From the IMG/VR virus record IMGVR_UViG_3300037089_000131: a DNA stretch of 63,019 bases, one strand, 5' to 3'. The position numbers and the translations under genes are program-made. Position 1 is the first letter of the stretch. Each line of letters opens with the position of its first letter. Shown here one piece after another: positions 909-47,614 of this stretch. Origin of the DNA: a virus. The notes under the pieces are model-generated. The model ran no database searches. It was not told the origin of the DNA and was given only the letters and a program-made list of their open reading frames with translations.

Positions 909-3362
909 ATGCCCACATCGCTGACAGCAGAGTTCCTCGTAATCGCCCGTCCCACCGACGATAAGATTGCGTTGCTAGCAAAGCAGTTCAAGCTCACCCC
1001 TGAGCAGATAGAACTGTGCATACAGCTTGACCCCTCCCCCAACCAGACTGACTTCGTGACTTGGATTGCCCGCCAGCTTTCCAAGGGTAACCTTCGCCTT
1101 CCCGAGGACGGTCCCGGCACCAGGGATACCCTCACCGCCTTCCAGACCCAGCGCCGACGCCCTGCCTTCGGTGGGAGCAAGGACATCAACGCCTATGCCA
1201 CCCCAGGCGACCTTGCCGAGGCTGTCCAGCAGAACGCTATGGTGGTCGTGCGCAACAAGGATGCGGAGAAGTTCAGGAACATACCAGGGGCAAGAATGGT
1301 GGTCCAGAAGGGCGACCTCACCGTGTTCCAAGCGACGACCGCCGAGGCGTGTGCCCTACTTTCCGACTCAACTCAGTGGTGTACCAGGCATAGTGGGACG
1401 GCAGCAGGCTACATCGGGCAGGGTCCAAGCTACATAGGGTTCTACCACGGAGGACCCTATGCCCAGCTCCATCCTCCTTCTAACCAGTTCATGGACAAGC
1501 GGGACAATCCTCTCGTCAAGGTATATCGGGCCAAGCGGGAAAGCGGTGGGGGGTGGGGTCGTAGCCGCTGGCGGCAGGGAGAGGTGCTTGGTACGGTCAT
1601 AAACGGTCCTGTCGCCCAGACGATGGTTGAACTCCTGAGGCCAAAGTTTCCGGATGTTGAGAAGTGGTACCAGAAGCAGAAGATTTCCGACCCCAAGGAA
1701 CTGGCCAAGCGTCTAAACGAGCCTAACAATGTCTTGGACTTAGCTGTCCTTAACGGTGTCCCCCTTTCCCCGGAACAGGAAGCCAGATTGTTCAAGAATG
1801 GAGACCCAGAAGACTATGACGAATGGGAAGAGCTATGGAACTATGCCGACAAGTTCCATCCCACGGGAAGGTGGGAGCTGCTTGAGAACATCATAAAGAA
1901 GAACCTCAGGAAGAACCTGAGTCAGGCTATTCGTTATGCCAAGGAACGGATAAAGGGACGGTGGCCAGAAATGGAGCCGTTCATTATCCGCAATGCGGCC
2001 ATAAACGACCAGCACGCCGGGATAGCCTTGGACTATGCCGTCAATGCCATCAAGGGACGTTGGCCGGAGCTTGAGGAAAAGTTCAAGACCACCAAGAGCA
2101 CCGACACGATGCCCAATCTTGCCTTCAAGTATGCCGTGGAGGTGTTGAAGCAGCCTTGGAGGGACGCCGAGCCGCAGGCAAGGTTCCAATATGGGATGGT
2201 AAAGCCCGAGCTTCTGATGTGCCTCAACACCCCTGAGACGGCAATTGAATACGCCGAGCACTTCAACCTCAAGCCCTGGCCGGAGTTTGCCCAAATCCTG
2301 CTTACAAAGAAGCAGCTTGACTGGTATGTACGGTACCTTGCCAAGCTGGGCAACAAGGCAAGGGACCACCGCCTTGAGCAGCGTCTCCTGTCCCCTGTCC
2401 CGGAGGTCGAGAAGATGGTGGTCAAGATGGAGGACTACGAGCGAAGGCGGTGGAGGTACGAACACAACAACGAGGACCCCCCGTTATTCAAGATGGAGGA
2501 ACAGACCCTTAACAAGGACGGACTGGCAAATCAGTATAACGAAGAGGTTCTCGGAGAACAGCGCTGGCCGGAATTCGAACAGAAGCTCATTCGTGAGGCC
2601 AGCGACAAGGAGAGTAAGGTAATCCCCACGAGTTTCATGATGATGGAAGATAGCGGATATTATGGTGCTAGTCAAAAAGACCGTCTTCCTGACCCGTTTG
2701 CAACCTATATCAGTAATGCCGTAAAGGGAAGATGGCCAGAGTTTGAGCAGGTTCTCCTCCAGCGTTACCAAGACTACCCCGATGCCTGGAAGAGCAACCA
2801 AGCGCTGGTTTCTGGATACCTCAATCTTGTCGGACCCCTCGTAAAGGGCAAAGAGCCAGAGGAAGAAGTACGCTATAATAGGAATTGGACTCCTATGAAC
2901 GAAAAACCCACGCCTCCTACTGGTGTCTGGGCGGAGGGCGAGGCAATCCTCAGGCAACGCAGCCCCATATATGAGGCTGCACTTACCACCGAGGCAAACG
3001 AGGCCCTCGGCATGCCAGAGATTCCCTACAAGCTACCCAAGCGAGACGAGCCTGCGTATGTCAAGGAAGAACGGCAAGATGCCCTCTGGGAAGCAGGCTA
3101 TCATATAGGAAAGTATATTGAGTTCCTCCGTAGCATCGGAAACGACTGGCCAGAAGGGGTAGCCGTCCTGAACAGGGTAGAGGATATACGGGATGCCAGG
3201 CACAAGGAAATAAGAGATGTCGGAGGGCATTCAGTCGTTCATAGCAATCGGCTAAAGCCGCCCAAGGGGGAGCAGGGCATGCCCGCCAGCCACTATGGCA
3301 GCCTTCTTGACCGACTGGAGTCCCACGCCCTGCTCCACCGCAGGAGAATTCAACCCCTGTAA
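909..3362 (+). CDS. large hypothetical protein with internal KGRWPE repeats
   Basis: 817-aa ORF; a ~35-aa repeat carrying KGRWPE(M/L/F)E occurs at least 4 times (IKGRWPEMEP, IKGRWPELEE, GEQRWPEFEQ, VKGRWPEFEQ). Confidence 0.6.
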   Translation: MPTSLTAEFLVIARPTDDKIALLAKQFKLTPEQIELCIQLDPSPNQTDFVTWIARQLSKGNLRLPEDGPGTRDTLTAFQTQRRRPAFGGSKDINAYATPGDLAEAVQQNAMVVVRNKDAEKFRNIPGARMVVQKGDLTVFQATTAEACALLSDSTQWCTRHSGTAAGYIGQGPSYIGFYHGGPYAQLHPPSNQFMDKRDNPLVKVYRAKRESGGGWGRSRWRQGEVLGTVINGPVAQTMVELLRPKFPDVEKWYQKQKISDPKELAKRLNEPNNVLDLAVLNGVPLSPEQEARLFKNGDPEDYDEWEELWNYADKFHPTGRWELLENIIKKNLRKNLSQAIRYAKERIKGRWPEMEPFIIRNAAINDQHAGIALDYAVNAIKGRWPELEEKFKTTKSTDTMPNLAFKYAVEVLKQPWRDAEPQARFQYGMVKPELLMCLNTPETAIEYAEHFNLKPWPEFAQILLTKKQLDWYVRYLAKLGNKARDHRLEQRLLSPVPEVEKMVVKMEDYERRRWRYEHNNEDPPLFKMEEQTLNKDGLANQYNEEVLGEQRWPEFEQKLIREASDKESKVIPTSFMMMEDSGYYGASQKDRLPDPFATYISNAVKGRWPEFEQVLLQRYQDYPDAWKSNQALVSGYLNLVGPLVKGKEPEEEVRYNRNWTPMNEKPTPPTGVWAEGEAILRQRSPIYEAALTTEANEALGMPEIPYKLPKRDEPAYVKEERQDALWEAGYHIGKYIEFLRSIGNDWPEGVAVLNRVEDIRDARHKEIRDVGGHSVVHSNRLKPPKGEQGMPASHYGSLLDRLESHALLHRRRIQPL

Positions 3363-3415: not shown

Positions 3416-3862
3416 ATGGAAACCATCCCCTACTCAACTACCTTGGAAGACCTTAAGCTCCCCCCCGCCAAGGAGCCGATGCGACTCGTATTCTCAGGCG
3501 ACTTTGACTACGAGGGGTACAGCAAGAGCTACCGCTCCTTCTGCCATCTGGATGTCTATTCGGACGGCAAGGACAAGCGGGTATTCATCGCCACCGAGCT
3601 TTCCCGAAACACTGGCACCAGCGTCACCAACGCCATCGAGATGGTGGCGGAGGCCGTCGAGAAGCATTTTGGGCTTCCCCACGTCTTCGGTCCAGATTCC
3701 CCCAAGACCAACATCCTTGTCGAGCACTATGACCAAGACGACCACTATTCCATAGTAGAATTCGAGAAGGAAGGCGGCTCCCTGCGGTATTATGTGTCAC
3801 CCGGATGGTGGGGGGTGGACAAGTCCGAGGTCGAGCGCCTGACTGGAGGACCCATTGCCTGA
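3416..3862 (+). CDS. hypothetical protein
   Basis: 148-aa ORF preceded by GAGGAG RBS. Confidence 0.5.
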   Translation: METIPYSTTLEDLKLPPAKEPMRLVFSGDFDYEGYSKSYRSFCHLDVYSDGKDKRVFIATELSRNTGTSVTNAIEMVAEAVEKHFGLPHVFGPDSPKTNILVEHYDQDDHYSIVEFEKEGGSLRYYVSPGWWGVDKSEVERLTGGPIA

Positions 3863-4385
3863 ATTAACTCCCTTAACCATAGCTATCTGGGATGACCCTA
3901 TTCTGTCCACTGTGTGCGACCTGGTGGGAGCCGACGAGTTTGGAGAGGGGCTGGAGACGCTCGGAAAGCAGATGCTCCTCACCATGGGCGGCGGTGGAAT
4001 CGGGCTTGCGGCCAGTCAGGTAGGGCTGGCAAAAAGACTATTCGTGATGAGACGGACGACAGCAGACCATAAGGGTGAGACAATCATTGCCGTCAACCCT
4101 GTCATAGAGGCATTCGGGGAGTTCAAGGCCCACGAGGAGGGATGCCTGTCCTTCCCCAATATCTATGGCATAGTCAGCCGCCAGCAGGAGTGTGACCTGA
4201 CCTATCAAGACCCCTTGGACGGAGGCGAATGGACAGTGCGGCTGAACGGATATGACTCCTTCTGTGCGCAGCATGAGATTGACCACTGCAACGGGATAAT
4301 GTTCTTCGACAAGCGGCGGATGCCAAAATCGCTTGGAAGGAAGGTATTAAAGGAATGGGAGAAGTCCCGAAGGGGGAAACAATGA
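3855..4385 (+). CDS. def: peptide deformylase
   Basis: All three PDF motifs present: GIGLAASQVG (GxGxAAxQ), EGCLSFP (EGCLS) and HEIDHCNG (HExxH). Confidence 0.8.
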   Translation: MPELTPLTIAIWDDPILSTVCDLVGADEFGEGLETLGKQMLLTMGGGGIGLAASQVGLAKRLFVMRRTTADHKGETIIAVNPVIEAFGEFKAHEEGCLSFPNIYGIVSRQQECDLTYQDPLDGGEWTVRLNGYDSFCAQHEIDHCNGIMFFDKRRMPKSLGRKVLKEWEKSRRGKQ

Positions 4386-6960: not shown

Positions 6961-8058
6961 ATGCAAGATTCAAAGGAAAAGGCATCGTTCACGGAGCAGT
7001 ACTTCGATTACAGCGGCGGCAGGGAGAACGCCCCCTTGCTCACCGTCATGGTCGGTCCTGCGGGCTCGGGCAAGAGCACCATCGCCAAGAGTGTGGTGAA
7101 TTGGGCTGCGGGCAAGACCGTGCGGCTGAACCGTGATACCCTTCGGGCTATGCTGTTTGCCGACTCCCCATGGAACCATGCGAAGGAAGATGTGGTTCGC
7201 AAGTACGAGGAAGAGGGCATTCGCTCGTTCCTTGGCATGGGTCTGAACGTCATCGTGGACGACACCAATTGCGTGCCCAGGACCCGCCAGAAGCTTGAGG
7301 AGATTGCCCGTGGGGCAAGGGTCAAGTTCTGCCTGACGGTCATGAACATCGACAAGGAAGAGTGTTTGCGGCGGAACGCCCTACGCACCGGCAAGGAGGT
7401 CGTCCCCGAGGAAGCCATCGACCAGCACTTCAAGCGGCTCCGGGAGAAGACCGTGCGGCCGTTCGGCTACGGGATGGAGGAATCCAACCGGGCACTGGAG
7501 GACTGGAGCGAGCTTAACGCCACCATCGCCGGGGGCAGGGACTTCCACGAGCGCCTTCCGGGCGCACCGTGGGTATTCTGCGACGTGGACGGCACGCTGG
7601 CGGAGAACGAGGGCGAGAGGAACCAGTTCGACGAGACCAAGGTGCTTCTGGACTCCTGCCGGGAGCCGGTGGCGGCATGGCTCCGGGGGCTGTACTCGAC
7701 CCATAACATCTGCATCCTCTCCGGTCGGCACGATACCTGCTGCAAGGACTCATGCGACTGGTTCGAGATGTACAAGATTCCCTTTGACATGTTCCTGATG
7801 CGGGGAGCGACGAACTTCGAGCACGACTACATCGTCAAGCGCAAGATTATGGAGACGGTCCTCCGGGTAATCCCCAAGGAGCGCATCGCCTTCATGGTTG
7901 ACGACCGCCCGCAGGTCTGCCGGATGTGGAAGAACGAGCTTGGACTCAAGGTCTACCCGGTCGGGGGAACCACCGACCATGGGGCGACCTGCACCTTCGT
8001 CCCCGAGAAGAAGGGCTGGAAGCACTGCCCGCAATGCGGGGCGCTGGAGGACTTCTGA
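6961..8058 (+). CDS. pnk: polynucleotide 5'-kinase/3'-phosphatase (T4 Pnkp-like)
   Basis: N-terminal P-loop GPAGSGKST followed by a C-terminal HAD-type DxDGT motif (FCDVDGTLAE); same domain order as T4 PseT. Confidence 0.8.
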   Translation: MQDSKEKASFTEQYFDYSGGRENAPLLTVMVGPAGSGKSTIAKSVVNWAAGKTVRLNRDTLRAMLFADSPWNHAKEDVVRKYEEEGIRSFLGMGLNVIVDDTNCVPRTRQKLEEIARGARVKFCLTVMNIDKEECLRRNALRTGKEVVPEEAIDQHFKRLREKTVRPFGYGMEESNRALEDWSELNATIAGGRDFHERLPGAPWVFCDVDGTLAENEGERNQFDETKVLLDSCREPVAAWLRGLYSTHNICILSGRHDTCCKDSCDWFEMYKIPFDMFLMRGATNFEHDYIVKRKIMETVLRVIPKERIAFMVDDRPQVCRMWKNELGLKVYPVGGTTDHGATCTFVPEKKGWKHCPQCGALEDF

Positions 8059-8243
8059 TGGAAGACCTCAACGAGGAGTTTGACCGCCTGTGGGACGAGA
8101 CGGAGGGGCACCCAAGGCAGGACTGCCAGTGCCCCCTCTGCATCCGGTTCCGTGAGATAGACGCTATGCCACCGGTTCCTTGGACTAAGGAACAGCGGCT
8201 CATCGCAGAGTTCAAATGCGATTCACGTTTGGAGGACCTTTGA
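8058..8243 (+). CDS. hypothetical protein
   Basis: TGATG overlap with pnk stop; 61 aa with CQCPLC. Confidence 0.4.
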   Translation: MEDLNEEFDRLWDETEGHPRQDCQCPLCIRFREIDAMPPVPWTKEQRLIAEFKCDSRLEDL

Positions 8244-8572
8244 TGGGCGATTGCTACCTGTGCGACAAGCACTACCCCGGAACCGACCCCACCACCACGG
8301 TGGTGGTGAACACCATGGACCGGATGGACGGAAGAATCAAGCTCCTCAAGATGTCCAAGGGGCTTTACGATAAGTTTATCGCCTTCACCAAGGTCGAGGC
8401 TGCCAAGGAGGCCAAGAAACCAAGCTGGCTCGCCCGATGGTTCAACCGGCTTATCGGTCGCCACCAGCCGGACGCCAACTTATTCTTGGTTAGCGGCGGG
8501 CAGTTCTACCAGCAATGCCGGTACTGCGACAGGGCAATCCAGAAGGAAGGAAACCACTGGAGGGTCATGTGA
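8243..8572 (+). CDS. hypothetical protein
   Basis: GGAGG RBS; ATG overlaps the previous stop; Cys pairs CYLC...CRYC. Confidence 0.45.
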   Translation: MGDCYLCDKHYPGTDPTTTVVVNTMDRMDGRIKLLKMSKGLYDKFIAFTKVEAAKEAKKPSWLARWFNRLIGRHQPDANLFLVSGGQFYQQCRYCDRAIQKEGNHWRVM

Positions 8573-8913
8573 CGACCAAGCCCACCACCCTGTTCTGCGA
8601 CAAGCTAAAGAACCACAAGGGTGAGAACTGGTTCGCCCACTTCTACCCAAGCCGCATGCAGGTCAGGATGTGCCGCCTACCGGAGGAGATGAGCCGCCCG
8701 ATGCTGGAGGTGGAGGTTTCGGAGAGGACGGAGGCACCCGGATGCTACTGGGCATGGTGGGACGAGGAACATCAAAGGTTTGACTTCGTCTACCCCCACA
8801 AGGGGCTTGTAGAGATGTGCTTCCCCTATGGAACGAAGGTAGAGGAGGGGCAGGGACGGGGCAAACTACTCCCCGTGAATGTCAAGGTTATGAGGGAGAC
8901 GGAGCCACGGTGA
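8569..8913 (+). CDS. hypothetical protein
   Basis: Probable GTG start overlapping the previous stop (ATGTGA); the in-frame track ORF 8515 begins inside the upstream gene. Confidence 0.4.
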   Translation: MTTKPTTLFCDKLKNHKGENWFAHFYPSRMQVRMCRLPEEMSRPMLEVEVSERTEAPGCYWAWWDEEHQRFDFVYPHKGLVEMCFPYGTKVEEGQGRGKLLPVNVKVMRETEPR

Positions 8914-9137
8914 TGGACTTTTCCGACGACGCCAAGTTCTTCACCTACAGCTTCGAGGACGAGACCTCGCAGTTCGACCCAAAGGGACGGTGGGTACCCG
9001 GCGCTGAGTTCTACGAAAGGACGATGTACTGCCGTGTTCCTCTGGAGTTAAAGGACGACGAGGACCTGATTGGCGAGTTCATCGACCAGCACTGGGACGA
9101 AGAGGGGTTCTGGCGGGACGAACCCGAGAAAGGGTAA
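8913..9137 (+). CDS. hypothetical acidic protein
   Basis: TGATG junction; 74 aa. Confidence 0.4.
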   Translation: MDFSDDAKFFTYSFEDETSQFDPKGRWVPGAEFYERTMYCRVPLELKDDEDLIGEFIDQHWDEEGFWRDEPEKG

Positions 9138-9141
9138 TCCG

Positions 9142-9399
9142 ATGAAGCCAAAGTTTAACATCCTGCACCGGGACTATCTCAAGCAGGCGATACCGACCTT
9201 CATGAACCAGTGCGAGGGCGGTTCCTGCGGTTGCACGGGCAAGGATATCAAGCCTCCAGACTCCTTCGAGCTTGGGGCGCTGGCGGTAATGCAGGGGCTA
9301 GACGACATCCATTACGCACCCTATCACCACCTGACCAAGGTGGACGTGCTCAGGGCAATTCAGAAGCGGTGCCAATTCCTCATCGACCTGGAGAAATAA
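9142..9399 (+). CDS. hypothetical protein
   Basis: Internal ATG (MKPKFNILH) after the previous stop with an AGGG RBS; CEGGSCGC motif. Confidence 0.4.
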   Translation: MKPKFNILHRDYLKQAIPTFMNQCEGGSCGCTGKDIKPPDSFELGALAVMQGLDDIHYAPYHHLTKVDVLRAIQKRCQFLIDLEK

Positions 9400-10667
9400 T
9401 GAAGCTGGAAAACCTGCTGAACATCGACAACCTTAACCGTCTGGTGACGGAGAGGTACATCGCCGTGCGCAAGCACCCGAGTCTGCCCCTGCGCATCTAC
9501 AACTACACCAGCGAGTGCATGTTCAAGAACATGTGGCCATATGAGGTCTGCGTCTGCCGGGGTCTCATCGTGGACGACAAGGACAACATCGTCAGCCGCC
9601 CCATCCCGAAGTTCTTCAACCTCGGGCAGTCAGGACCCTACATATTCCGCAACGCCCAAGGAAACTTGGAGGTTCGGGACGAGGTGTTTAGCGACCGCTT
9701 TCTCGTTGAGACATCGGAGTTCCTGCATGCCCCGCTCTCCATCACCCGCAAGCTGGACGGATGGGCGGGGATATCGTGGAACTACGAGGACAAGTGGGGG
9801 GTCGCCAGCCGTGGCTCCTTTGACTCGCCGGGGGCGCTCTATGCCACGGAGAAGTTCCAGAAGTTCGTCAAGTACACGGCAGTGGAGTTCATCCCCAAGG
9901 ACACTACCCTCTTCTTCGAGATAATCTCCAAGGAGACAAGGGTCGTCGTCCCCTATGACTTCGAGGGGTTGGTGCTCATCGCCGCCATCGACAACGACAC
10001 CGGGGAGGAGATGCGGCGGTCAGGCGTCGAGGCTCTCTACAAGGAAATCAACCAGTATGCCAAGGAACGCCCGTGGTGCCGGTTGGTGGAAGACTTCCCT
10101 ATGCGCTCGCTCGCCAAGTGCATGACGGACGACAGCATGACCGAGGAAGGGTATGTCGTCGCCATCCACCGGAATGGGCTTCCCCCTGTCCGGTCAAAGA
10201 TAAAGCTTGCCGAGTATTGCAGGCTGCATCGCATCCTGTGCGGCGTGACCCCGCAGAAGATTTGGCTGGAGCTTGCCGACCCGATGTCGTCTTGGGTCAA
10301 CCATGGCAGCAAGAAGGACTGGAAGACCGGCGAAATCAAGCATGACATGCAAATCCCGAGGGAGTTCGCCGACTGGGTGCTCGACTGGCACAAGCGCATA
10401 ACCGAGAGCTTCCACCAGAATCTTGTGGACGCCCTGCGTGTCGAGAAGGCGTTCGCCGACATGCGAACCGACGAGATGGCATGGAAGGAAATACAGGACA
10501 ACTGGGAGTATCTCAGGACAGCCGGTGGCTACTCCAAGGAAATCGTTAAGGTCGCCTCCAAGCTACATGGCGGCAAGGTGACGGAGGCATATGCCGACCT
10601 TTGGAACCTGGTGCGGCCGTTCGGCAGGGAGGAAGCTGCATTCTATTCGGAAGGGCAGGGTGAATGA
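9399..10667 (+). CDS. rnlA: RNA ligase (T4 RnlA/Rnl1-like)
   Basis: N-terminus YNYTSECMFKNMWPYEVCVCRGLIVDDKDNIVSRPIPKFFNL parallels T4 Rnl1 ([23 protein letters not shown]...ASRPMEKFFNL); nucleotidyltransferase motif I KLDG; TAATG overlap with the upstream stop. Confidence 0.8.
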   Translation: MKLENLLNIDNLNRLVTERYIAVRKHPSLPLRIYNYTSECMFKNMWPYEVCVCRGLIVDDKDNIVSRPIPKFFNLGQSGPYIFRNAQGNLEVRDEVFSDRFLVETSEFLHAPLSITRKLDGWAGISWNYEDKWGVASRGSFDSPGALYATEKFQKFVKYTAVEFIPKDTTLFFEIISKETRVVVPYDFEGLVLIAAIDNDTGEEMRRSGVEALYKEINQYAKERPWCRLVEDFPMRSLAKCMTDDSMTEEGYVVAIHRNGLPPVRSKIKLAEYCRLHRILCGVTPQKIWLELADPMSSWVNHGSKKDWKTGEIKHDMQIPREFADWVLDWHKRITESFHQNLVDALRVEKAFADMRTDEMAWKEIQDNWEYLRTAGGYSKEIVKVASKLHGGKVTEAYADLWNLVRPFGREEAAFYSEGQGE

Positions 10668-24029: not shown

Positions 24030-24197
24030 ATGAGCAACATCGAGAACAACCCGCAGGGATTTCTCAGCACCAACAGCAAATGTCCCAAATGCGGAAGTAC
24101 CGACCTGTACATGAAGTGGTACGACCATGGGGCGCACGAGGGGGATATCCACTGTTCCAAGTGCGGTGCCTACGTGCGCACATTCGACGCAGGGTAA
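24030..24197 (+). CDS. Zn-ribbon protein (55 aa)
   Basis: CPKCG...CSKCG; GGGGGA RBS; below the ORF-track cutoff. Confidence 0.3.
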   Translation: MSNIENNPQGFLSTNSKCPKCGSTDLYMKWYDHGAHEGDIHCSKCGAYVRTFDAG

Positions 24198-24207
24198 AGG
24201 AGATTTC

Positions 24208-24696
24208 ATGATATCAGTATACCTATCGGGAGGGATAAAGGGGCTGACCGACGAGCAGGCGTTCGGGTGGAGGCATAAGGTGTGCAGTCACTACGGCTGC
24301 ACTGATGAGGGACGCCCCCTGACTCGTGCGGATGGACTCCCGTTTATCCTCGGACCAGGGTCTATGACAGGTAAGGTGAAGCTCACCATCCCCACGAGGA
24401 TTGAGTACCGCTGGAACATGGATATCAAGGCTGCCGCCGAGTGGATAATCAGGCGGGACAAGATGGCCATAGCCAAGTGCGACATCGTCCTCGTCAATGC
24501 CCCGGTTCCAAGCTGGGGAACGGCGATGGAAATCATGTGCGCCCACGAGCTTGAGAAGCGGATTGTCGTGGTGTGTGAGGATAAAAACCCAAGCCCATGG
24601 CTGGTAGCCCACGCAGATATCCTAATCCCGTCCTTCGAGGATGCCTACCGGGAGATAGACAACATCGTCCGGGAGATGGAAGAACTAAACCTATGA
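24208..24696 (+). CDS. nucleoside 2-deoxyribosyltransferase/Rcl(DNPH1)-like protein
   Basis: YLSGGIKG...W...DIVLVNAP..SWGTAMEIMCAHELEKRIVVV pattern of the deoxyribosyltransferase fold. Confidence 0.5.
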   Translation: MISVYLSGGIKGLTDEQAFGWRHKVCSHYGCTDEGRPLTRADGLPFILGPGSMTGKVKLTIPTRIEYRWNMDIKAAAEWIIRRDKMAIAKCDIVLVNAPVPSWGTAMEIMCAHELEKRIVVVCEDKNPSPWLVAHADILIPSFEDAYREIDNIVREMEELNL

Positions 24697-28384: not shown

Positions 28385-28590
28385 TGGCCGAAGCACCATC
28401 AGGCTGGACAAGGGTAAGGAACGCCATCCTCAAGGGGATGAAGGCAGCACAGGCAGAAGTGAAGGAGGGCGTGTGCGGCTACAGCGAGCCTTGGCATATC
28501 GAACACGCCCTGCTTGAAGCCGGACTGCTTACCCCGGAGGCGGAAGAGGTCATCGGCTTCATCGGCGTGCCTCCTGACCCCAAGGTCTAG
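28384..28590 (+). CDS. hypothetical protein
   Basis: TAATG junction. Confidence 0.4.
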   Translation: MAEAPSGWTRVRNAILKGMKAAQAEVKEGVCGYSEPWHIEHALLEAGLLTPEAEEVIGFIGVPPDPKV

Positions 28591-29402
28591 CTCCACACTG
28601 GTCCGAGGTGGCACATGTGGCAGTCGGACACATAGGGTCCGTTGCCGCTCGGGTCAATCCCGTTCAGGTAGCCATAGGGCATGAAGCAGTTCCCGTTGTT
28701 CCCCCAAGAACCCCAGCTATTGCGGATGCACAGAGCGCCGGGAGGCAAGCCGGGGAAGGCGAATTTGTCGTTGTACCCCCAGACACACCCCGCATGGCCA
28801 CCGAGAAGCTGCTCGGTCTTGGTCGGCATCGTCATGATGCCGTTTGCGGCCACTGATGCGGTCTCAAAGGATTCATAAACGAGGAACCCAAGCTCGAACA
28901 CGAAACCTGAGTTGAGGGCGTTCTTCATGTCCAGAAGGGTGTTAAGGGCGTACACCTTCCCGACCTTGTAATGGGCGGCGTCCACGAAGGATTTGGCCGA
29001 GGGGTGGGTGGCGAACGGGGTCGAGTATGGCTCGTCGGCATCGGGGGCGATTCCCCACATCTGCATGGAGACCATGGCGGTGGCCACGGTAGACCCGGCG
29101 TCCTGCGGCACGTCGCCATTGAGCAGGCGCTCGCAATAGTACTGGAACTGGGCGCTCAGGGGCACCGGCTTCTTGACGTACTTGATGCTGAGGAACTCCC
29201 TTGTGTTCTTTGCCCCGAAGGCGGTACAGGAGCCTTCCTGAGCCTGGTCGTAGAGGGGAGGCATCCATTGCAGGAGGCTCACGGAGGCGGGCAGGGGGGT
29301 GCTCATGTCATGATGCAGCGAGTAGGAAGGGTGAACCTTCCTTACCCTGGAATGGGCAAAGCTGTACTTGCGGCCGGTCACCGGGGAGATAGGAACACTC
29401 AT
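28587..29402 (-). CDS. papain-like (C1 family) cysteine peptidase
   Basis: Catalytic QEGSCTAFG (Q...C), LGGHAGCVWGY (His) and IRNSWGSWGNNG...PYGY (N-S-W-G); AAGGAGGA RBS; one of only two minus-strand genes. Confidence 0.7.
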   Translation of the reverse strand: MSVPISPVTGRKYSFAHSRVRKVHPSYSLHHDMSTPLPASVSLLQWMPPLYDQAQEGSCTAFGAKNTREFLSIKYVKKPVPLSAQFQYYCERLLNGDVPQDAGSTVATAMVSMQMWGIAPDADEPYSTPFATHPSAKSFVDAAHYKVGKVYALNTLLDMKNALNSGFVFELGFLVYESFETASVAANGIMTMPTKTEQLLGGHAGCVWGYNDKFAFPGLPPGALCIRNSWGSWGNNGNCFMPYGYLNGIDPSGNGPYVSDCHMCHLGPVWS

Positions 29403-39695: not shown

Positions 39696-40157
39696 ATGGA
39701 CAAGTGGGACACCATCTATGACTCCCGCCAGCGCTTCTGTGTGGGGTACCTCTTCAGCCCCGACCTTACGAAGGTGGTGCTCATCCGAAAGAACCGCCCG
39801 GACTGGCAGGCAACCAAGCTCAACGGCGTGGGCGGCAAGCTACAAGACGGGGAGACCCCCCTCCGGGGCATGCAGCGTGAGTTCCTTGAGGAGACGGGGC
39901 TGGAGCACTGGGAATGGAAGCCCCTCGCCCGCCTGGAGTTCGAGAAGGCGGTGGTGTGGTTCTTCTGGGGGACAAGCTGCCTCTATGACCTCGTGGAGAC
40001 CAAGACCGACGAGCCGGTAGAGGTCTACAAGGTAGGATTGCTGGGGGCGCTTAACCTCGTCCCCAACTCCTGCTGGCTCATCCCCATGGCCATATCCTTC
40101 ACGAAGGGCGAGCGGGCGAACTGCTTCGTCGTCCATGAGGTCTACGATGCCGTATAA
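39696..40157 (+). CDS. NUDIX hydrolase
   Basis: Nudix box GGKLQDGETPLRGMQREFLEETGL (Gx5Ex7REUxEExGU). Confidence 0.75.
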   Translation: MDKWDTIYDSRQRFCVGYLFSPDLTKVVLIRKNRPDWQATKLNGVGGKLQDGETPLRGMQREFLEETGLEHWEWKPLARLEFEKAVVWFFWGTSCLYDLVETKTDEPVEVYKVGLLGALNLVPNSCWLIPMAISFTKGERANCFVVHEVYDAV

Positions 40158-41555: not shown

Positions 41556-42380
41556 ATGGAGTTCGTAAAACCGCAGGTCTACCACGTGGCGTCCACCCGC
41601 TGCCACAGCGATGCCATCATGGCATACCTAAAGGACATCGGTGCCGAGGAGTGGAGGACGGACCCCACCTCCGACGCCGAGTTGCTGCTGGAGGTCGCCG
41701 GGCGGGCGTGCTACCGGTCCTTCAAGGAAGGGCTTAACGCCAATGTGACCAAGGTCAGGGAGGGCAACGCCCTCTACCTCGGGAACATCCTGAACTCCAA
41801 GCACGGCAGCGTCCTTGAGCACGCCTACGACACCTACATCTTCCACAACATCAGCCGGGTGTTCACCCACGAGCTTGTCCGCCACCGGGCGGGCTGCGCC
41901 TACTCGCAGGAGAGCCTGCGCTTCGTGCGCCTCGACGAGCTACGGACATGGTACCCGACCATCCTCACCGACCTCCCGAACGGGGCATGGCCGGATGATA
42001 TGTCGAGGAACGACGCCCACCTGTGGCTCCAGAACAAGTGGCTGGAGGTCATCACCTACCTGGAGGGCGTGCAGAAGGAGACAGCGGCATTCTTCAACCT
42101 TGACCGCCTGCCCTTCGACCTGAAGAAGAAGCTGACCAGCGTCATGCGGCGGTGGGCACCGCTAGGATTGGCCACCACCATCATGATGACGGGCAACCAC
42201 CGGGTCTGGAGGCACCTCATCACCATGCGCACCAGCCGCCATGCCGAGGAGGAAATCCGCTTGGTGTTCAACCAAGTGTACAAGGAGCAGAAGACCTGCT
42301 ACCCGAGCCTCTATCAGGATGCCAAGGAAACCTTGGTGGACGGAATGCTGGAAATAACATTCGAGAACGAGAAGGTGTGA
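41556..42380 (+). CDS. thyX: FAD-dependent thymidylate synthase ThyX
   Basis: ThyX signature FTHELVRHRAGCAYSQES (RHRx7-8S) plus MTGNHRVWRHLITMR. Confidence 0.85.
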   Translation: MEFVKPQVYHVASTRCHSDAIMAYLKDIGAEEWRTDPTSDAELLLEVAGRACYRSFKEGLNANVTKVREGNALYLGNILNSKHGSVLEHAYDTYIFHNISRVFTHELVRHRAGCAYSQESLRFVRLDELRTWYPTILTDLPNGAWPDDMSRNDAHLWLQNKWLEVITYLEGVQKETAAFFNLDRLPFDLKKKLTSVMRRWAPLGLATTIMMTGNHRVWRHLITMRTSRHAEEEIRLVFNQVYKEQKTCYPSLYQDAKETLVDGMLEITFENEKV

Positions 42381-46117: not shown

Positions 46118-46378
46118 ATGGATGCCACGATTGCCCTCATCGGGGGGTTTGTAGTATTCTTCCTCGGTCTGTTCTCCATGATGTGCATCACCACATGGAT
46201 AGAACGCCGGGATGACGAGCAAAACCGCCAGCATACGCTGGAGATGGCCAAACTCGGTCTGGTCTGGGACGACGACAACGAAAGGTGGGTGCCAATTGGG
46301 ACGGGAAAAGAACGCACTGACATCGAGGATGAAGAACAACTACGAACTGAGGTGCCGCAGGTTCCTCCCGAGGCGTAG
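46118..46378 (+). CDS. small membrane protein
   Basis: Hydrophobic N-terminus LIGGFVVFFLGLFSMMCITTW. Confidence 0.4.
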   Translation: MDATIALIGGFVVFFLGLFSMMCITTWIERRDDEQNRQHTLEMAKLGLVWDDDNERWVPIGTGKERTDIEDEEQLRTEVPQVPPEA

Positions 46379-47084
46379 CTATGTCATCGTCCGGGTGGAC
46401 GGCAGGAGCTTCCACACGTGGACCCGTGGGCTTGAGAAGCCCTACGACAAGCACCTGCTGGACGCCATGGATGCTACCGCCTTGGAGCTTTGCGGGCAGG
46501 TGGCGGGCTGCAAGCTGGGATATGTCCAGTCGGACGAGATAAGCCTCGTGCTGACGGACTTCGACACCATCGAGACCGAGGCGTGGTTCGACAACTGCCA
46601 GAACAAGCTGGAGTCCATCACGGCGAGCATCGCCACGATGGCCTTCAACCTGCACATCGTGAGCACCAGGGATGCCCGGACGGACGCCTGCCTGAACGAC
46701 CCCGGCTCGGTCCCGGAGCTATACCGGCGATGCCCGGATGCCACCTTCGACTCTCGTGCCTTCGTCATCCCCGACTATGTGGAGGTGGAGAACTACCTCA
46801 TCGACCGGCAGAAGGACGCCATGCGCAACTCCGTGACGATGCTGGCCAGCAAGTATGCCAGCCACAAGAAGCTTAACGGGGTGACTCTTACCGACCGTTT
46901 GGCGCTCATCAAGGCGGCAGGGGACAACTGGGATAAGCACTCTGTCCGGTTCAAGCAGGGAGGGGTAGTGTACAATACCGGTGGGGAGTGGGTCGTCAGC
47001 GAAGAACCCAAGCCCTTCACCAAGAACCGTGAGTGGCTCAGGCTGGTAATCCCCCGGCACTGGGAGGAAGAACCTGCGGCATAG
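46329..47084 (+). CDS. Thg1-like protein (tRNA-His guanylyltransferase family 3'-5' nucleotidyltransferase)
   Basis: SYVIVRVDGRSFHTWTRGLEKPYD...GYVQSDEISLVL aligns with yeast Thg1 [26 protein letters not shown]...YGQSDEYSFVF; size (~250 aa) fits TLPs. Confidence 0.65.
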   Translation: MKNNYELRCRRFLPRRSYVIVRVDGRSFHTWTRGLEKPYDKHLLDAMDATALELCGQVAGCKLGYVQSDEISLVLTDFDTIETEAWFDNCQNKLESITASIATMAFNLHIVSTRDARTDACLNDPGSVPELYRRCPDATFDSRAFVIPDYVEVENYLIDRQKDAMRNSVTMLASKYASHKKLNGVTLTDRLALIKAAGDNWDKHSVRFKQGGVVYNTGGEWVVSEEPKPFTKNREWLRLVIPRHWEEEPAA

Positions 47085-47089
47085 TATCT

Positions 47090-47614
47090 ATGGGTATGGA
47101 ACAAACACCTAGCCAAGACACTGGATTCAAGCGTACCTCCGGCCAGAGCACCGACTACGGCACGGGGGCGACAAGGGACATGCGGTCGATGAAGGGGGCA
47201 CCGGTAGAGATGCCGTATGACGCCCTCTACCTCGTCAGCCGCATCTACGAGGACGGCAACCGGGGCAGGGGATGGCGAAACTGGGAGAACGGAATGCCCA
47301 TCGCCGACCTGCTCGACAGCGCCCAGCGGCATATCAACCAGCACATCGTCGGGGACCGCAATGAGCGCCATCTGCCGCAGGCGGTATGGAACCTTCTCAA
47401 TGCCATCCAGACCTCCATCTGGGTGATGCTTAAGACCCGGCCAGCCGCCCTCAACAACCTTCCGGACCACCGCCACGTATGGCTGCCCGGCGACCCCAAC
47501 CCCTGCCCTCTTTCTCAGCAGGACATCGACTCGCTAAAGTTCTACGGGGTTCTCCCCAAGGACTACGAGTGGAAGCCCGAGGCTACCGGCTACAACCGAC
47601 GACCGGAGAAATGA
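47090..47614 (+). CDS. hypothetical protein
   Basis: Internal ATG after the Thg1-like stop. Confidence 0.4.
   Translation: MGMEQTPSQDTGFKRTSGQSTDYGTGATRDMRSMKGAPVEMPYDALYLVSRIYEDGNRGRGWRNWENGMPIADLLDSAQRHINQHIVGDRNERHLPQAVWNLLNAIQTSIWVMLKTRPAALNNLPDHRHVWLPGDPNPCPLSQQDIDSLKFYGVLPKDYEWKPEATGYNRRPEK

Follow-up and report, generated by a model that had tools for sequence, protein, structure and literature searches.

A conserved Pnkp-Rnl1 gene pair, probably a T4-type RNA heal-and-seal module, on a divergent phage contig

What role is served by a polynucleotide kinase/phosphatase (Pnkp) and an Rnl1-type RNA ligase when the two are encoded close to one another by an uncultured phage? This question is raised by the window considered here, namely, the whole of a 63,019-bp metagenome contig (virus record IMGVR_UViG_3300037089_000131), on which the corresponding genes are found at positions 6961-8058 and 9399-10667, both on the + strand. 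An original prediction had taken this pair, together with three tRNA-Lys genes, a Thg1-like enzyme and a further nucleotidyltransferase encoded elsewhere in the window, to represent a multi-layered counter-defence against a host anticodon nuclease. By analogy with the T4 pathway, the two proteins probably constitute an RNA heal-and-seal module that mends tRNA cut by a nuclease of the host or of a competitor.

The identity of the product of the first gene (6961-8058), a bifunctional Pnkp of 365 residues, was established by matches to Pfam, PHROG and Protein Data Bank (PDB) entries. Residues 27-163 (7039-7449) correspond to the 5'-OH kinase domain (Pfam AAA_33, E-value 1.9e-22) and include the P-loop GPAGSGKS (G32-S39; read from the DNA at 7054-7077), which fits the GxxGxGKS kinase motif. 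Residues 205-334 (7573-7962) correspond to a HAD-type 3'-phosphatase domain (Pfam HAD_PNKP, 4e-25; 89.1 bits against a cut-off of 27.6) containing the motif DVDGT, read from the DNA at 7582-7596. As such, the description of this protein as a P-loop kinase fused to a DxDGT phosphatase was borne out, with the phosphatase domain and its conserved residues distinguishing it from a simple dNMP kinase. Moreover, PHROG 505, annotated as 'polynucleotide kinase', aligned nearly end to end (4.7e-65), and the nearest solved structure, colinear over residues 23-334, was that of Pnkp1 from a bacterial complex for RNA repair (4xrp; 3e-30). The T4 Pnkp structure 1ltq was also matched (1.5e-13).

The catalytic residues were considered in an alignment (A2) of the window Pnkp with three huge-phage relatives and with T4 Pnkp, the sequence of which came from the T4 record. 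In this alignment, kinase residues K38, S39, D59, R62 and R142 correspond to K15, S16, D35, R38 and R126 of the T4 enzyme, and phosphatase residues D208, D210, T212, R220, S254 and R256 correspond to T4 D165, D167, T169, R176, S211 and R213, as do D289, K293, D314 and D315 to T4 D254, K258, D277 and D278. The residue correspondence was computed, and the T4 positions are those that we take to be essential from mutational work of the Shuman laboratory. Pnkp is accordingly assigned as a T4-type kinase/phosphatase whose catalytic residues are all in place, and both activities are predicted. Outside of the two domains, an N-terminal extension of ~23 residues is conserved in the clade, as is a clade-specific, Cys-rich C-terminal tail of ~30 residues with the pattern H-x3-C-x12-CPxCG.

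For the second gene, the listing of open reading frames (ORFs) began at a GTG at 9210 (9210-10667). The true start is, however, the ATG at 9399, because this is the start seen in gene calls on five other metagenome contigs and supported by the family alignment; this ATG overlaps the preceding stop codon by one base. The gene so delimited (9399-10667) encodes an Rnl1-family ATP-dependent RNA ligase of 422 residues, an identity established by Pfam RNA_lig_T4_1 (PF09511; 8.1e-12, 45.9 bits against a cut-off of 28.3), by PHROG 562 (6.9e-44) and by alignments A1 and A3. Profile searches of the kinase, HAD and RNA_lig_T4_1 families, the first check to have been proposed, thus all returned matches. 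PF09511 was likewise present in all of the listed homologues but two, namely, P0035 and the 720-residue P0043. Among solved structures, the ligase sequence matched only T4 Rnl1, and this weakly (about 1e-3).

The window ligase was aligned with 11 homologues and T4 Rnl1, and a second alignment comprised 88 sequences. The predicted KxDG motif was found as KLDG, read from the DNA at 9750-9761, with the adenylylation lysine, K118, being encoded at 9750-9752. In agreement with the claim that the N-terminal region aligns with T4 RnlA, motif I residues K118/D120/G121 correspond to T4 K99/D101/G102, such that the adenylyltransferase lysine is present. Similarly, E174 corresponds to T4 E159, E250/G251 to E227/G228, K267/K269 to K240/K242, and R54/K71/F73 to R54/K75/F77. 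All of these catalytic columns were invariant across the 88 sequences except that of F73, where H or W is found in three relatives (alignment A1). At the position of T4 K119, the window ligase contains Arg.

The ligase comprises a nucleotidyltransferase domain (residues ~1-290) followed by a helical C-terminal domain (residues ~320-405), with clade-specific inserts at residues ~85-112, before motif I, and at residues ~293-320, in the interdomain linker. An AlphaFold2 model generated from the 88-sequence alignment (mean pLDDT 90, pTM 0.84) placed four helices at residues 321-404 and presented the ~22-residue insert before motif I, with high confidence, as a beta-hairpin and a helix; the insert in the interdomain linker was modelled with low confidence. 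When this model was compared with the PDB using Foldseek, the best matches were three T4 Rnl1 entries (2c5u, E 2.8e-17), aligned over some 430 columns (432 for the top match) that include the helical C-terminal domain. The next matches were the ligase domains of the fungal tRNA ligase Trl1. The global TM-score of the ligase model was about 0.5, a value that probably reflects the orientation of the domains in the model. Taken with the alignments, the fold assigns the protein to the Rnl1 type, with an active site that appears intact and an activity that is predicted.

The two genes are similarly oriented and separated by 1,340 bp, close to the predicted distance of 1.3 kb and to the distance of about 1.4 kb between pseT and rnlA in the T4 record. 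Three relatives, found on contigs of up to 432 kb and with ligase identities of 49-66%, present the same gene order, in which peptide deformylase is followed by Pnkp, a variable insert and Rnl1; in these relatives, a SNF2 helicase gene lies further downstream. When ligase loci in IMG/VR were considered, a Pnkp homologue was found within 10 kb in 34 of 80 cases, including all eight of the closest. In bacterial genomes, the flanking 5 kb of the ligase gene held a Pnkp homologue at 19 of 21 loci, mostly in Streptomyces and other Actinomycetota. At most of these 19 loci (L102-L120), the Pnkp gene lies about 300 bp downstream of the ligase gene, and its product contains both the kinase and the HAD phosphatase. 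The linkage of Pnkp and Rnl1 is an old, recurrent neighbourhood and not a matter of chance; of the computational evidence for a joint action of the two proteins, it is the strongest.

The interval between the two genes is occupied by five small, tightly packed and co-directional ORFs on the + strand, encoding products of 61, 109, 114, 74 and 85 residues (8058-8243, 8243-8572, 8569-8913, 8913-9137 and 9142-9399, respectively, as called on other assemblies), and no terminator-like site was detected on this strand between Pnkp and the ligase. The possibility that these ORFs represent hidden parts of the module was considered and rejected, given that none matched a family in Pfam, PHROG or NCBIfam and that they are not kept in relatives, being absent from L008 and L010, with only the last ORF being partly present in L007. 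In one relative, the insert instead contains two unrelated ORFs, and in another, a GIY-YIG endonuclease and DUF6915. The five ORFs would thus be variable cargo outside of the conserved module.

In comparison with T4, the window Pnkp shares with the T4 enzyme (pseT) the arrangement of an N-terminal kinase and a C-terminal DxDxT HAD phosphatase, just as the window ligase shares with T4 Rnl1 (rnlA/gp63) a nucleotidyltransferase domain joined to a helical C-terminal domain. In both phages, the pair is separated by about 1.3-1.4 kb, and it is T4 Rnl1 that offers the best structural match. By contrast, sequence identity is only 31% for Pnkp and 22% for Rnl1, the window Pnkp bears the additional ~23 N-terminal residues and the Cys-rich tail, and the window ligase contains the clade inserts. 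Furthermore, the T4 system involves an Stp-like activator and a PrrC-bearing host, neither of which is known for the window phage.

If the T4 pathway is followed, a metal-independent ribonuclease of the host or of a competitor would cut tRNA, typically in the anticodon loop, to generate ends with a 2',3'-cyclic phosphate and a 5'-OH. With D208 of DVDGT as nucleophile, the Pnkp phosphatase would remove the cyclic or 3'-phosphate to leave a 3'-OH, and the Pnkp kinase, relying on P-loop residue K38 and D59 as general base, would phosphorylate the 5'-OH at the expense of a nucleoside triphosphate, which in T4 is ATP. After self-adenylylation on K118, the Rnl1-type ligase would pass AMP to the 5'-phosphate and join the ends, such that the tRNA is restored. 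Nucleotides lost from the 3' or 5' ends could be refilled by RlaP and Thg1-like enzymes, and tRNAs beyond mending could be replaced from the phage tRNA genes. By analogy with T4, we infer tRNA to be the substrate, and cleavage by a host nuclease to be the reason that the module is carried.

The additional components invoked in this scheme, each of which had been included in the original prediction, were all found in the window. The Thg1-like 3'-5' nucleotidyltransferase (46212-47084, + strand) was recognized by Pfam Thg1 (2.7e-27) and by the motifs RVDGRSFH and QSDE in its translation; the start of this protein is likely an internal Met near 46329. The further nucleotidyltransferase is a Pol-beta enzyme of the RlaP family (56672-57637, + strand; PF10127, 1.6e-10, 41.5 bits against a cut-off of 23) presenting a GS...DLD motif. 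A preprint has shown that RlaP enzymes extend the 3' ends of damaged RNA by one to two nucleotides in vitro and are needed to restore the function of over-damaged tRNA (PMC12776372).

Detection of tRNA genes relied on ARAGORN and Rfam, supplemented by a sensitive Rfam scan. ARAGORN called 20 tRNA genes distributed over two arrays on the + strand. Array 1 (31163-33123) comprises tRNA-Tyr (two), tRNA-Leu (six) and tRNA-Ser (three) genes, and the upstream part of array 2 (61546-62485) contains, in order, genes for tRNA-His, tRNA-Trp, tRNA-His, three tRNA-Arg and tRNA-Asn. These are followed by the three predicted tRNA-Lys genes (62492-62733), of which the two with a CUU anticodon (62577-62652 and 62658-62733) were identified by ARAGORN and the third, with a UUU anticodon (62492-62570), was detected by the sensitive Rfam scan only. 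That phage tRNAs evade tRNA-targeting defences has been shown experimentally in two studies (PMC11464382, PMC11555353), and had also been proposed on the basis of comparative observations (PMC10264068).

The tRNA-Lys(UUU) gene is the most unusual feature of the window. Neither ARAGORN nor the default Rfam scan recovered it; in the sensitive scan, it scored 36 bits against a gathering score of 29. It presents a T-loop of CACCCAA instead of the usual TTCRANY, with the other tRNAs read in both arrays having normal T-loops. A tRNA-Lys(UUU) with identical anticodon and T arms was found in six IMG/VR contigs (L092-L094 and L097-L099), including 317-kb and 140-kb relatives with ligase identities of 57-59%, and the Asn-Lys-Lys-Lys tRNA block shares 88% DNA identity with that of relatives. 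Changes in the acceptor stem are pairing-tolerant, position 5:68 being C·A here and U·G there, and position 7:66 being G-C or G·U. The tRNA is thus kept almost unchanged, even though AAA accounts for only 7% of the lysine codons used by the phage. It is conceivable, if doubtful, that this tRNA is a nuclease-resistant substitute or decoy for the tRNA most targeted by anticodon nucleases, joined with Pnkp and Rnl1 in a clade-specific, lysine-centred counter-defence.

Several observations weigh against tRNA repair as the function of the pair. The substrate is drawn from T4 and from gene neighbourhoods, and neither a nuclease nor a host was identified; indeed, a PADLOC scan of ten large window ORFs, eight of them lacking a functional assignment, detected no anticodon nuclease and only a generic similarity to SNF2 helicases. 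Metal-dependent tRNases, such as Toprim and HNH effectors, would leave ends that do not need Pnkp. The ligase scored 27.8 bits against NCBIfam TIGR02308, the T4 RnlA equivalog, and so did not reach the cut-off of 242.25; on these grounds, the protein is classed as a distant family member rather than as a T4 RnlA equivalog. Given this result and the 22% identity, a T4-like specificity for tRNA cannot be assumed. In addition, the phosphatase domain is missing from L007, a close relative represented by a 339-kb contig. A deletion there (L007 9419-10001) has fused the end of the kinase domain with the mid-portion of the last small ORF, leaving a kinase-only protein of 152 residues next to an intact ligase. 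Either the full pair is dispensable in the L007 lineage or the L007 copy is decaying.

Other such points concern the emphasis on tRNA-Lys. The tRNA set is broad and includes rare-codon tRNAs, and in a relative, 19 tRNA genes, among them those for tRNA-Phe, tRNA-Met, tRNA-Pro and tRNA-Gln, lie within 12 kb; such a repertoire fits translational autonomy as well as it does defence evasion and weakens a specific link to tRNA-Lys. Lysine codons of the phage are AAG in 93% and AAA in 7% of cases, such that the two tRNA-Lys(CUU) genes match AAG usage and are explained by codon supply as well as by defence evasion. Moreover, the tRNA-His gene at 61743-61817 has T and not G at position -1, together with a C73 discriminator, whereas the other of the two (61546-61620) encodes G-1. 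Since one tRNA-His lacks an encoded G-1, the Thg1-like enzyme may simply mature this phage tRNA rather than take part in repair, and this, too, weakens the specific link to tRNA-Lys. The single tRNA-His gene found at the matching position in a relative (L094 4509-4582) encodes G-1. Of the counter-defence originally proposed, the enzyme pair and its tRNA, Thg1 and RlaP context stood; the link to an anticodon nuclease relies on analogy with T4 and PrrC and on the comparative-genomic literature, and the focus on lysine was weakened by the broad tRNA set.

How, then, does tRNA repair compare with other explanations of the pair? Housekeeping metabolism of RNA ends is an unlikely one. Here, Pnkp would phosphorylate, for mRNA decay, the 5'-OH RNA ends that endoribonucleases of the phage or host produce, much as T4 polynucleotide kinase has been reported to act after cleavage by RegB and so steer mRNA decay, with the pair also protecting the large tRNA pool of the phage from incidental damage. 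The very large tRNA sets of the clade need maturation and upkeep, a maturation task for the Thg1-like enzyme is plausible in light of the T at -1 and C73 of the tRNA-His gene at 61743-61817, and Rnl1-Pnkp operons occur in bacterial chromosomes (Streptomyces), where counter-defence against phages is not the first role to be expected. Yet, the window yielded no phage endoribonuclease, RegB-like or otherwise, and the tight and recurrent linkage of the kinase/phosphatase to a ligase favours the rejoining of ends over their degradation. The bacterial copies, for their part, may lie in prophages or serve in repair following toxin attack.

A second explanation, the healing of DNA ends, is considerably less probable. 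In this case, Pnkp would heal the 3'-phosphate and 5'-OH ends of DNA breaks during replication, repair or recovery from attack by host nucleases, and the ligase would be functionally unrelated. T4 Pnkp does act on DNA ends in vitro, and the region lies among replication and nucleotide-metabolism genes, including those encoding a SNF2 helicase, ThyX and a NUDIX protein. Furthermore, in the GenBank phage collection, records matching the Pnkp query far outnumber those matching the ligase query (1,888 vs. 350). This explanation is, however, countered by the conserved linkage of Pnkp to an RNA ligase in phages and bacteria alike, as well as by the placement of that ligase in the Rnl1 clade and not among DNA ligases.

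It is more improbable still that the module is decaying and no longer serves a function in the window phage. The deletion of the phosphatase domain from a close relative and the insertion of variable cargo between the two genes could be read in this manner, but both genes in the window are full length and of coding-type base composition (GC3 0.76-0.84), all of the catalytic residues are intact and amino-acid identity to relatives is 49-84%. Finally, a role for the ligase mainly as a tail-fibre attachment factor like T4 gp63, with RNA ligase chemistry being incidental, is scarcely credible, as the name 'RNA ligase and tail fiber protein attachment catalyst' borne by PHROG 562 and several GenBank records is inherited from T4, the adenylyltransferase residues are strictly conserved across the 88 homologues, and the gene accompanies that for Pnkp, as do its bacterial chromosomal homologues, rather than structural genes. 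None of these alternatives was favoured over repair of tRNA by the pair.

Sets of genes of this kind have been described before. In jumbo phages, Iyer, Anantharaman, Krishnan, Burroughs, and Aravind (2021; PMC7824862) reported tRNAs, Rnl1, Rnl2, RtcB, a PNK-HAD fusion, CCA-adding enzymes and, sporadically, Thg1, as well as RlaP nucleotidyltransferases that 'closely mirror' the ligases, and interpreted the repertoire as a whole as countering the attacks that hosts mount on the translation apparatus, including by tRNA-cleaving defences. Accordingly, the 'multi-layered' character of the repertoire was already on record (PMC7824862) and is not new. The window resembles the jumbo-phage repertoire in encoding many tRNAs, an ATP-grasp Rnl1, PNK-HAD, RlaP and a Thg1-like enzyme, and differs from it in that RtcB, Rnl2, a CCA-adding enzyme and 2H phosphoesterase were not seen in its 63 kb. 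It also differs in that the phage is from a peat lineage that is uncultured and shares less than 35% protein identity with the GenBank phages searched.

Two further systems were compared. Of the solved proteins, Pnkp1 of Capnocytophaga gingivalis (4xrp), part of the Pnkp1-Rnl-Hen1 complex, is the one most closely related to the window Pnkp, and presents the same kinase and HAD layout. By contrast, the ligase partner of Pnkp1 has no detectable sequence match to the window ligase, and the window proteins that were scanned included no Hen1 methyltransferase. Assignment to a Pnkp1-Rnl-Hen1-type system was thus rejected, the ligase being of the Rnl1 type and the methyltransferase not having been found. 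In Actinomycetota Rnl1-Pnkp operons and in actinophages (i.e., Streptomyces, Arthrobacter, Mycobacterium and Gordonia phages), members of both families are adjacent, as in the 19 of 21 bacterial loci considered above, although in the reverse order, with Pnkp directly downstream of the ligase, and with identities of only 27-38%. In sum, the pair in the window was correctly identified as a known kind of system, found in a new and very divergent phage lineage.

The extent of that divergence was seen at several levels. No nucleotide match was obtained when the region was compared with 50,697 phage records by Megablast, and for both enzymes, the best protein matches in the GenBank phage collection shared less than 35% identity, with the top matches coming from Arthrobacter and Streptomyces phages in the case of the ligase and from Mycobacterium and Gordonia phages in the case of Pnkp. 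A scan of IMG/VR with a single protein gave no match, the IMG/VR loci coming instead from a profile scan. A protein search identified ligase homologues sharing 45-70% identity on contigs of up to 126-435 kb, and these contigs are those of huge phages. In species-representative bacterial genomes, a scan with the 13-sequence alignment revealed no close relative, only Actinomycetota and Chloroflexota loci with identities of at most 38%. As only such distant bacterial loci were matched, no host could be inferred. Genes of the window recur on five to six other assemblies, the record names of which suggest an origin in peat or wetland, with the samples containing the contig being of the Stordalen and SPRUCE type, and the source is probably a very large uncultured peat-soil phage with a complete genome of more than 300 kb.

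As such, the T4 heal-and-seal module for tRNA repair can be extended to very large phages from peat soil that make up a deeply divergent lineage, with Pnkp-Rnl1 linkage being conserved from these phages to Streptomyces chromosomes. The breadth of this linkage supports tRNA cleavage as a widespread pressure on phages, well beyond those of enterobacteria. The divergent enzymes could, moreover, serve as reagents for modifying and ligating RNA ends. Both the concept and the gene set already appear in the literature, and no new question is opened by their presence here.

Other genes in the window were noted in the course of the analysis. On the + strand upstream of Pnkp, an ORF of 817 residues (909-3362) keeps its position in relatives (824 and 775 residues), upstream of the peptide deformylase gene; no match to this ORF was found in Pfam, PHROGs or PADLOC. 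The peptide deformylase gene itself lies at 3855-4385 (+ strand), as taken from precomputed Pfam matches on identical contigs. At 33461-35932, on the - strand and hence opposite to most of its neighbours, is a gene encoding an 823-residue homologue of Major Vault Protein (MVP), which matched Pfam MVP_shoulder (1.5e-23) and Vault_3 (7e-11) and, over residues 454-707, the structures of rat and human MVP (about 2e-17). To date, the only report of viral MVPs is a preprint from 2023 on gut phages (10.1101/2023.11.10.566534). A papain-family cysteine protease (Pfam 4.7e-8) is encoded at 28587-29402 on the - strand. A nucleotide-metabolism cluster (24127-24696, 36049-36528, 39696-40157, 41556-42380 and 47033-47614) comprises two nucleoside 2-deoxyribosyltransferase-like proteins, a NUDIX hydrolase, ThyX and a protein with a dATP/dGTP diphosphohydrolase N-terminal domain (MazZ-like), and hints at modified DNA bases.

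Some minor observations concern the tRNA arrays. Array 1 contains only tRNAs with a long variable arm (class II) and is split by an HNH-endonuclease-like ORF at 32118-32600; a sub-threshold tRNA-like element (34 bits on the tRNA-Sec model) lies at 32847-32928. Between the two tRNA-Tyr genes, a 154-nt spacer (31251-31404, + strand) is predicted to adopt a closed multibranched fold of clearly greater stability than that of shuffled sequences (z -3.3, 0 of 200 shuffles). This spacer matched no Rfam family and was unmatched in L092-L099, loci that, however, hold the other tRNA array of the relatives. In array 2, a 289-nt spacer (61818-62106) that ends with a T-arm-like hairpin and then CCA was considered as a split, intron-bearing or tmRNA-like RNA, an idea that was rejected because its fold is only weakly better than that of shuffled sequences (z -2.2) and because it is not conserved in relatives. 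Lastly, the end of the window (62963-63019, + strand) reads as another tRNA gene, with the anticodon loop CTGTTAC (GTT, Asn). Since the contig ends inside of this gene, the tRNA array runs on past the end of the contig.

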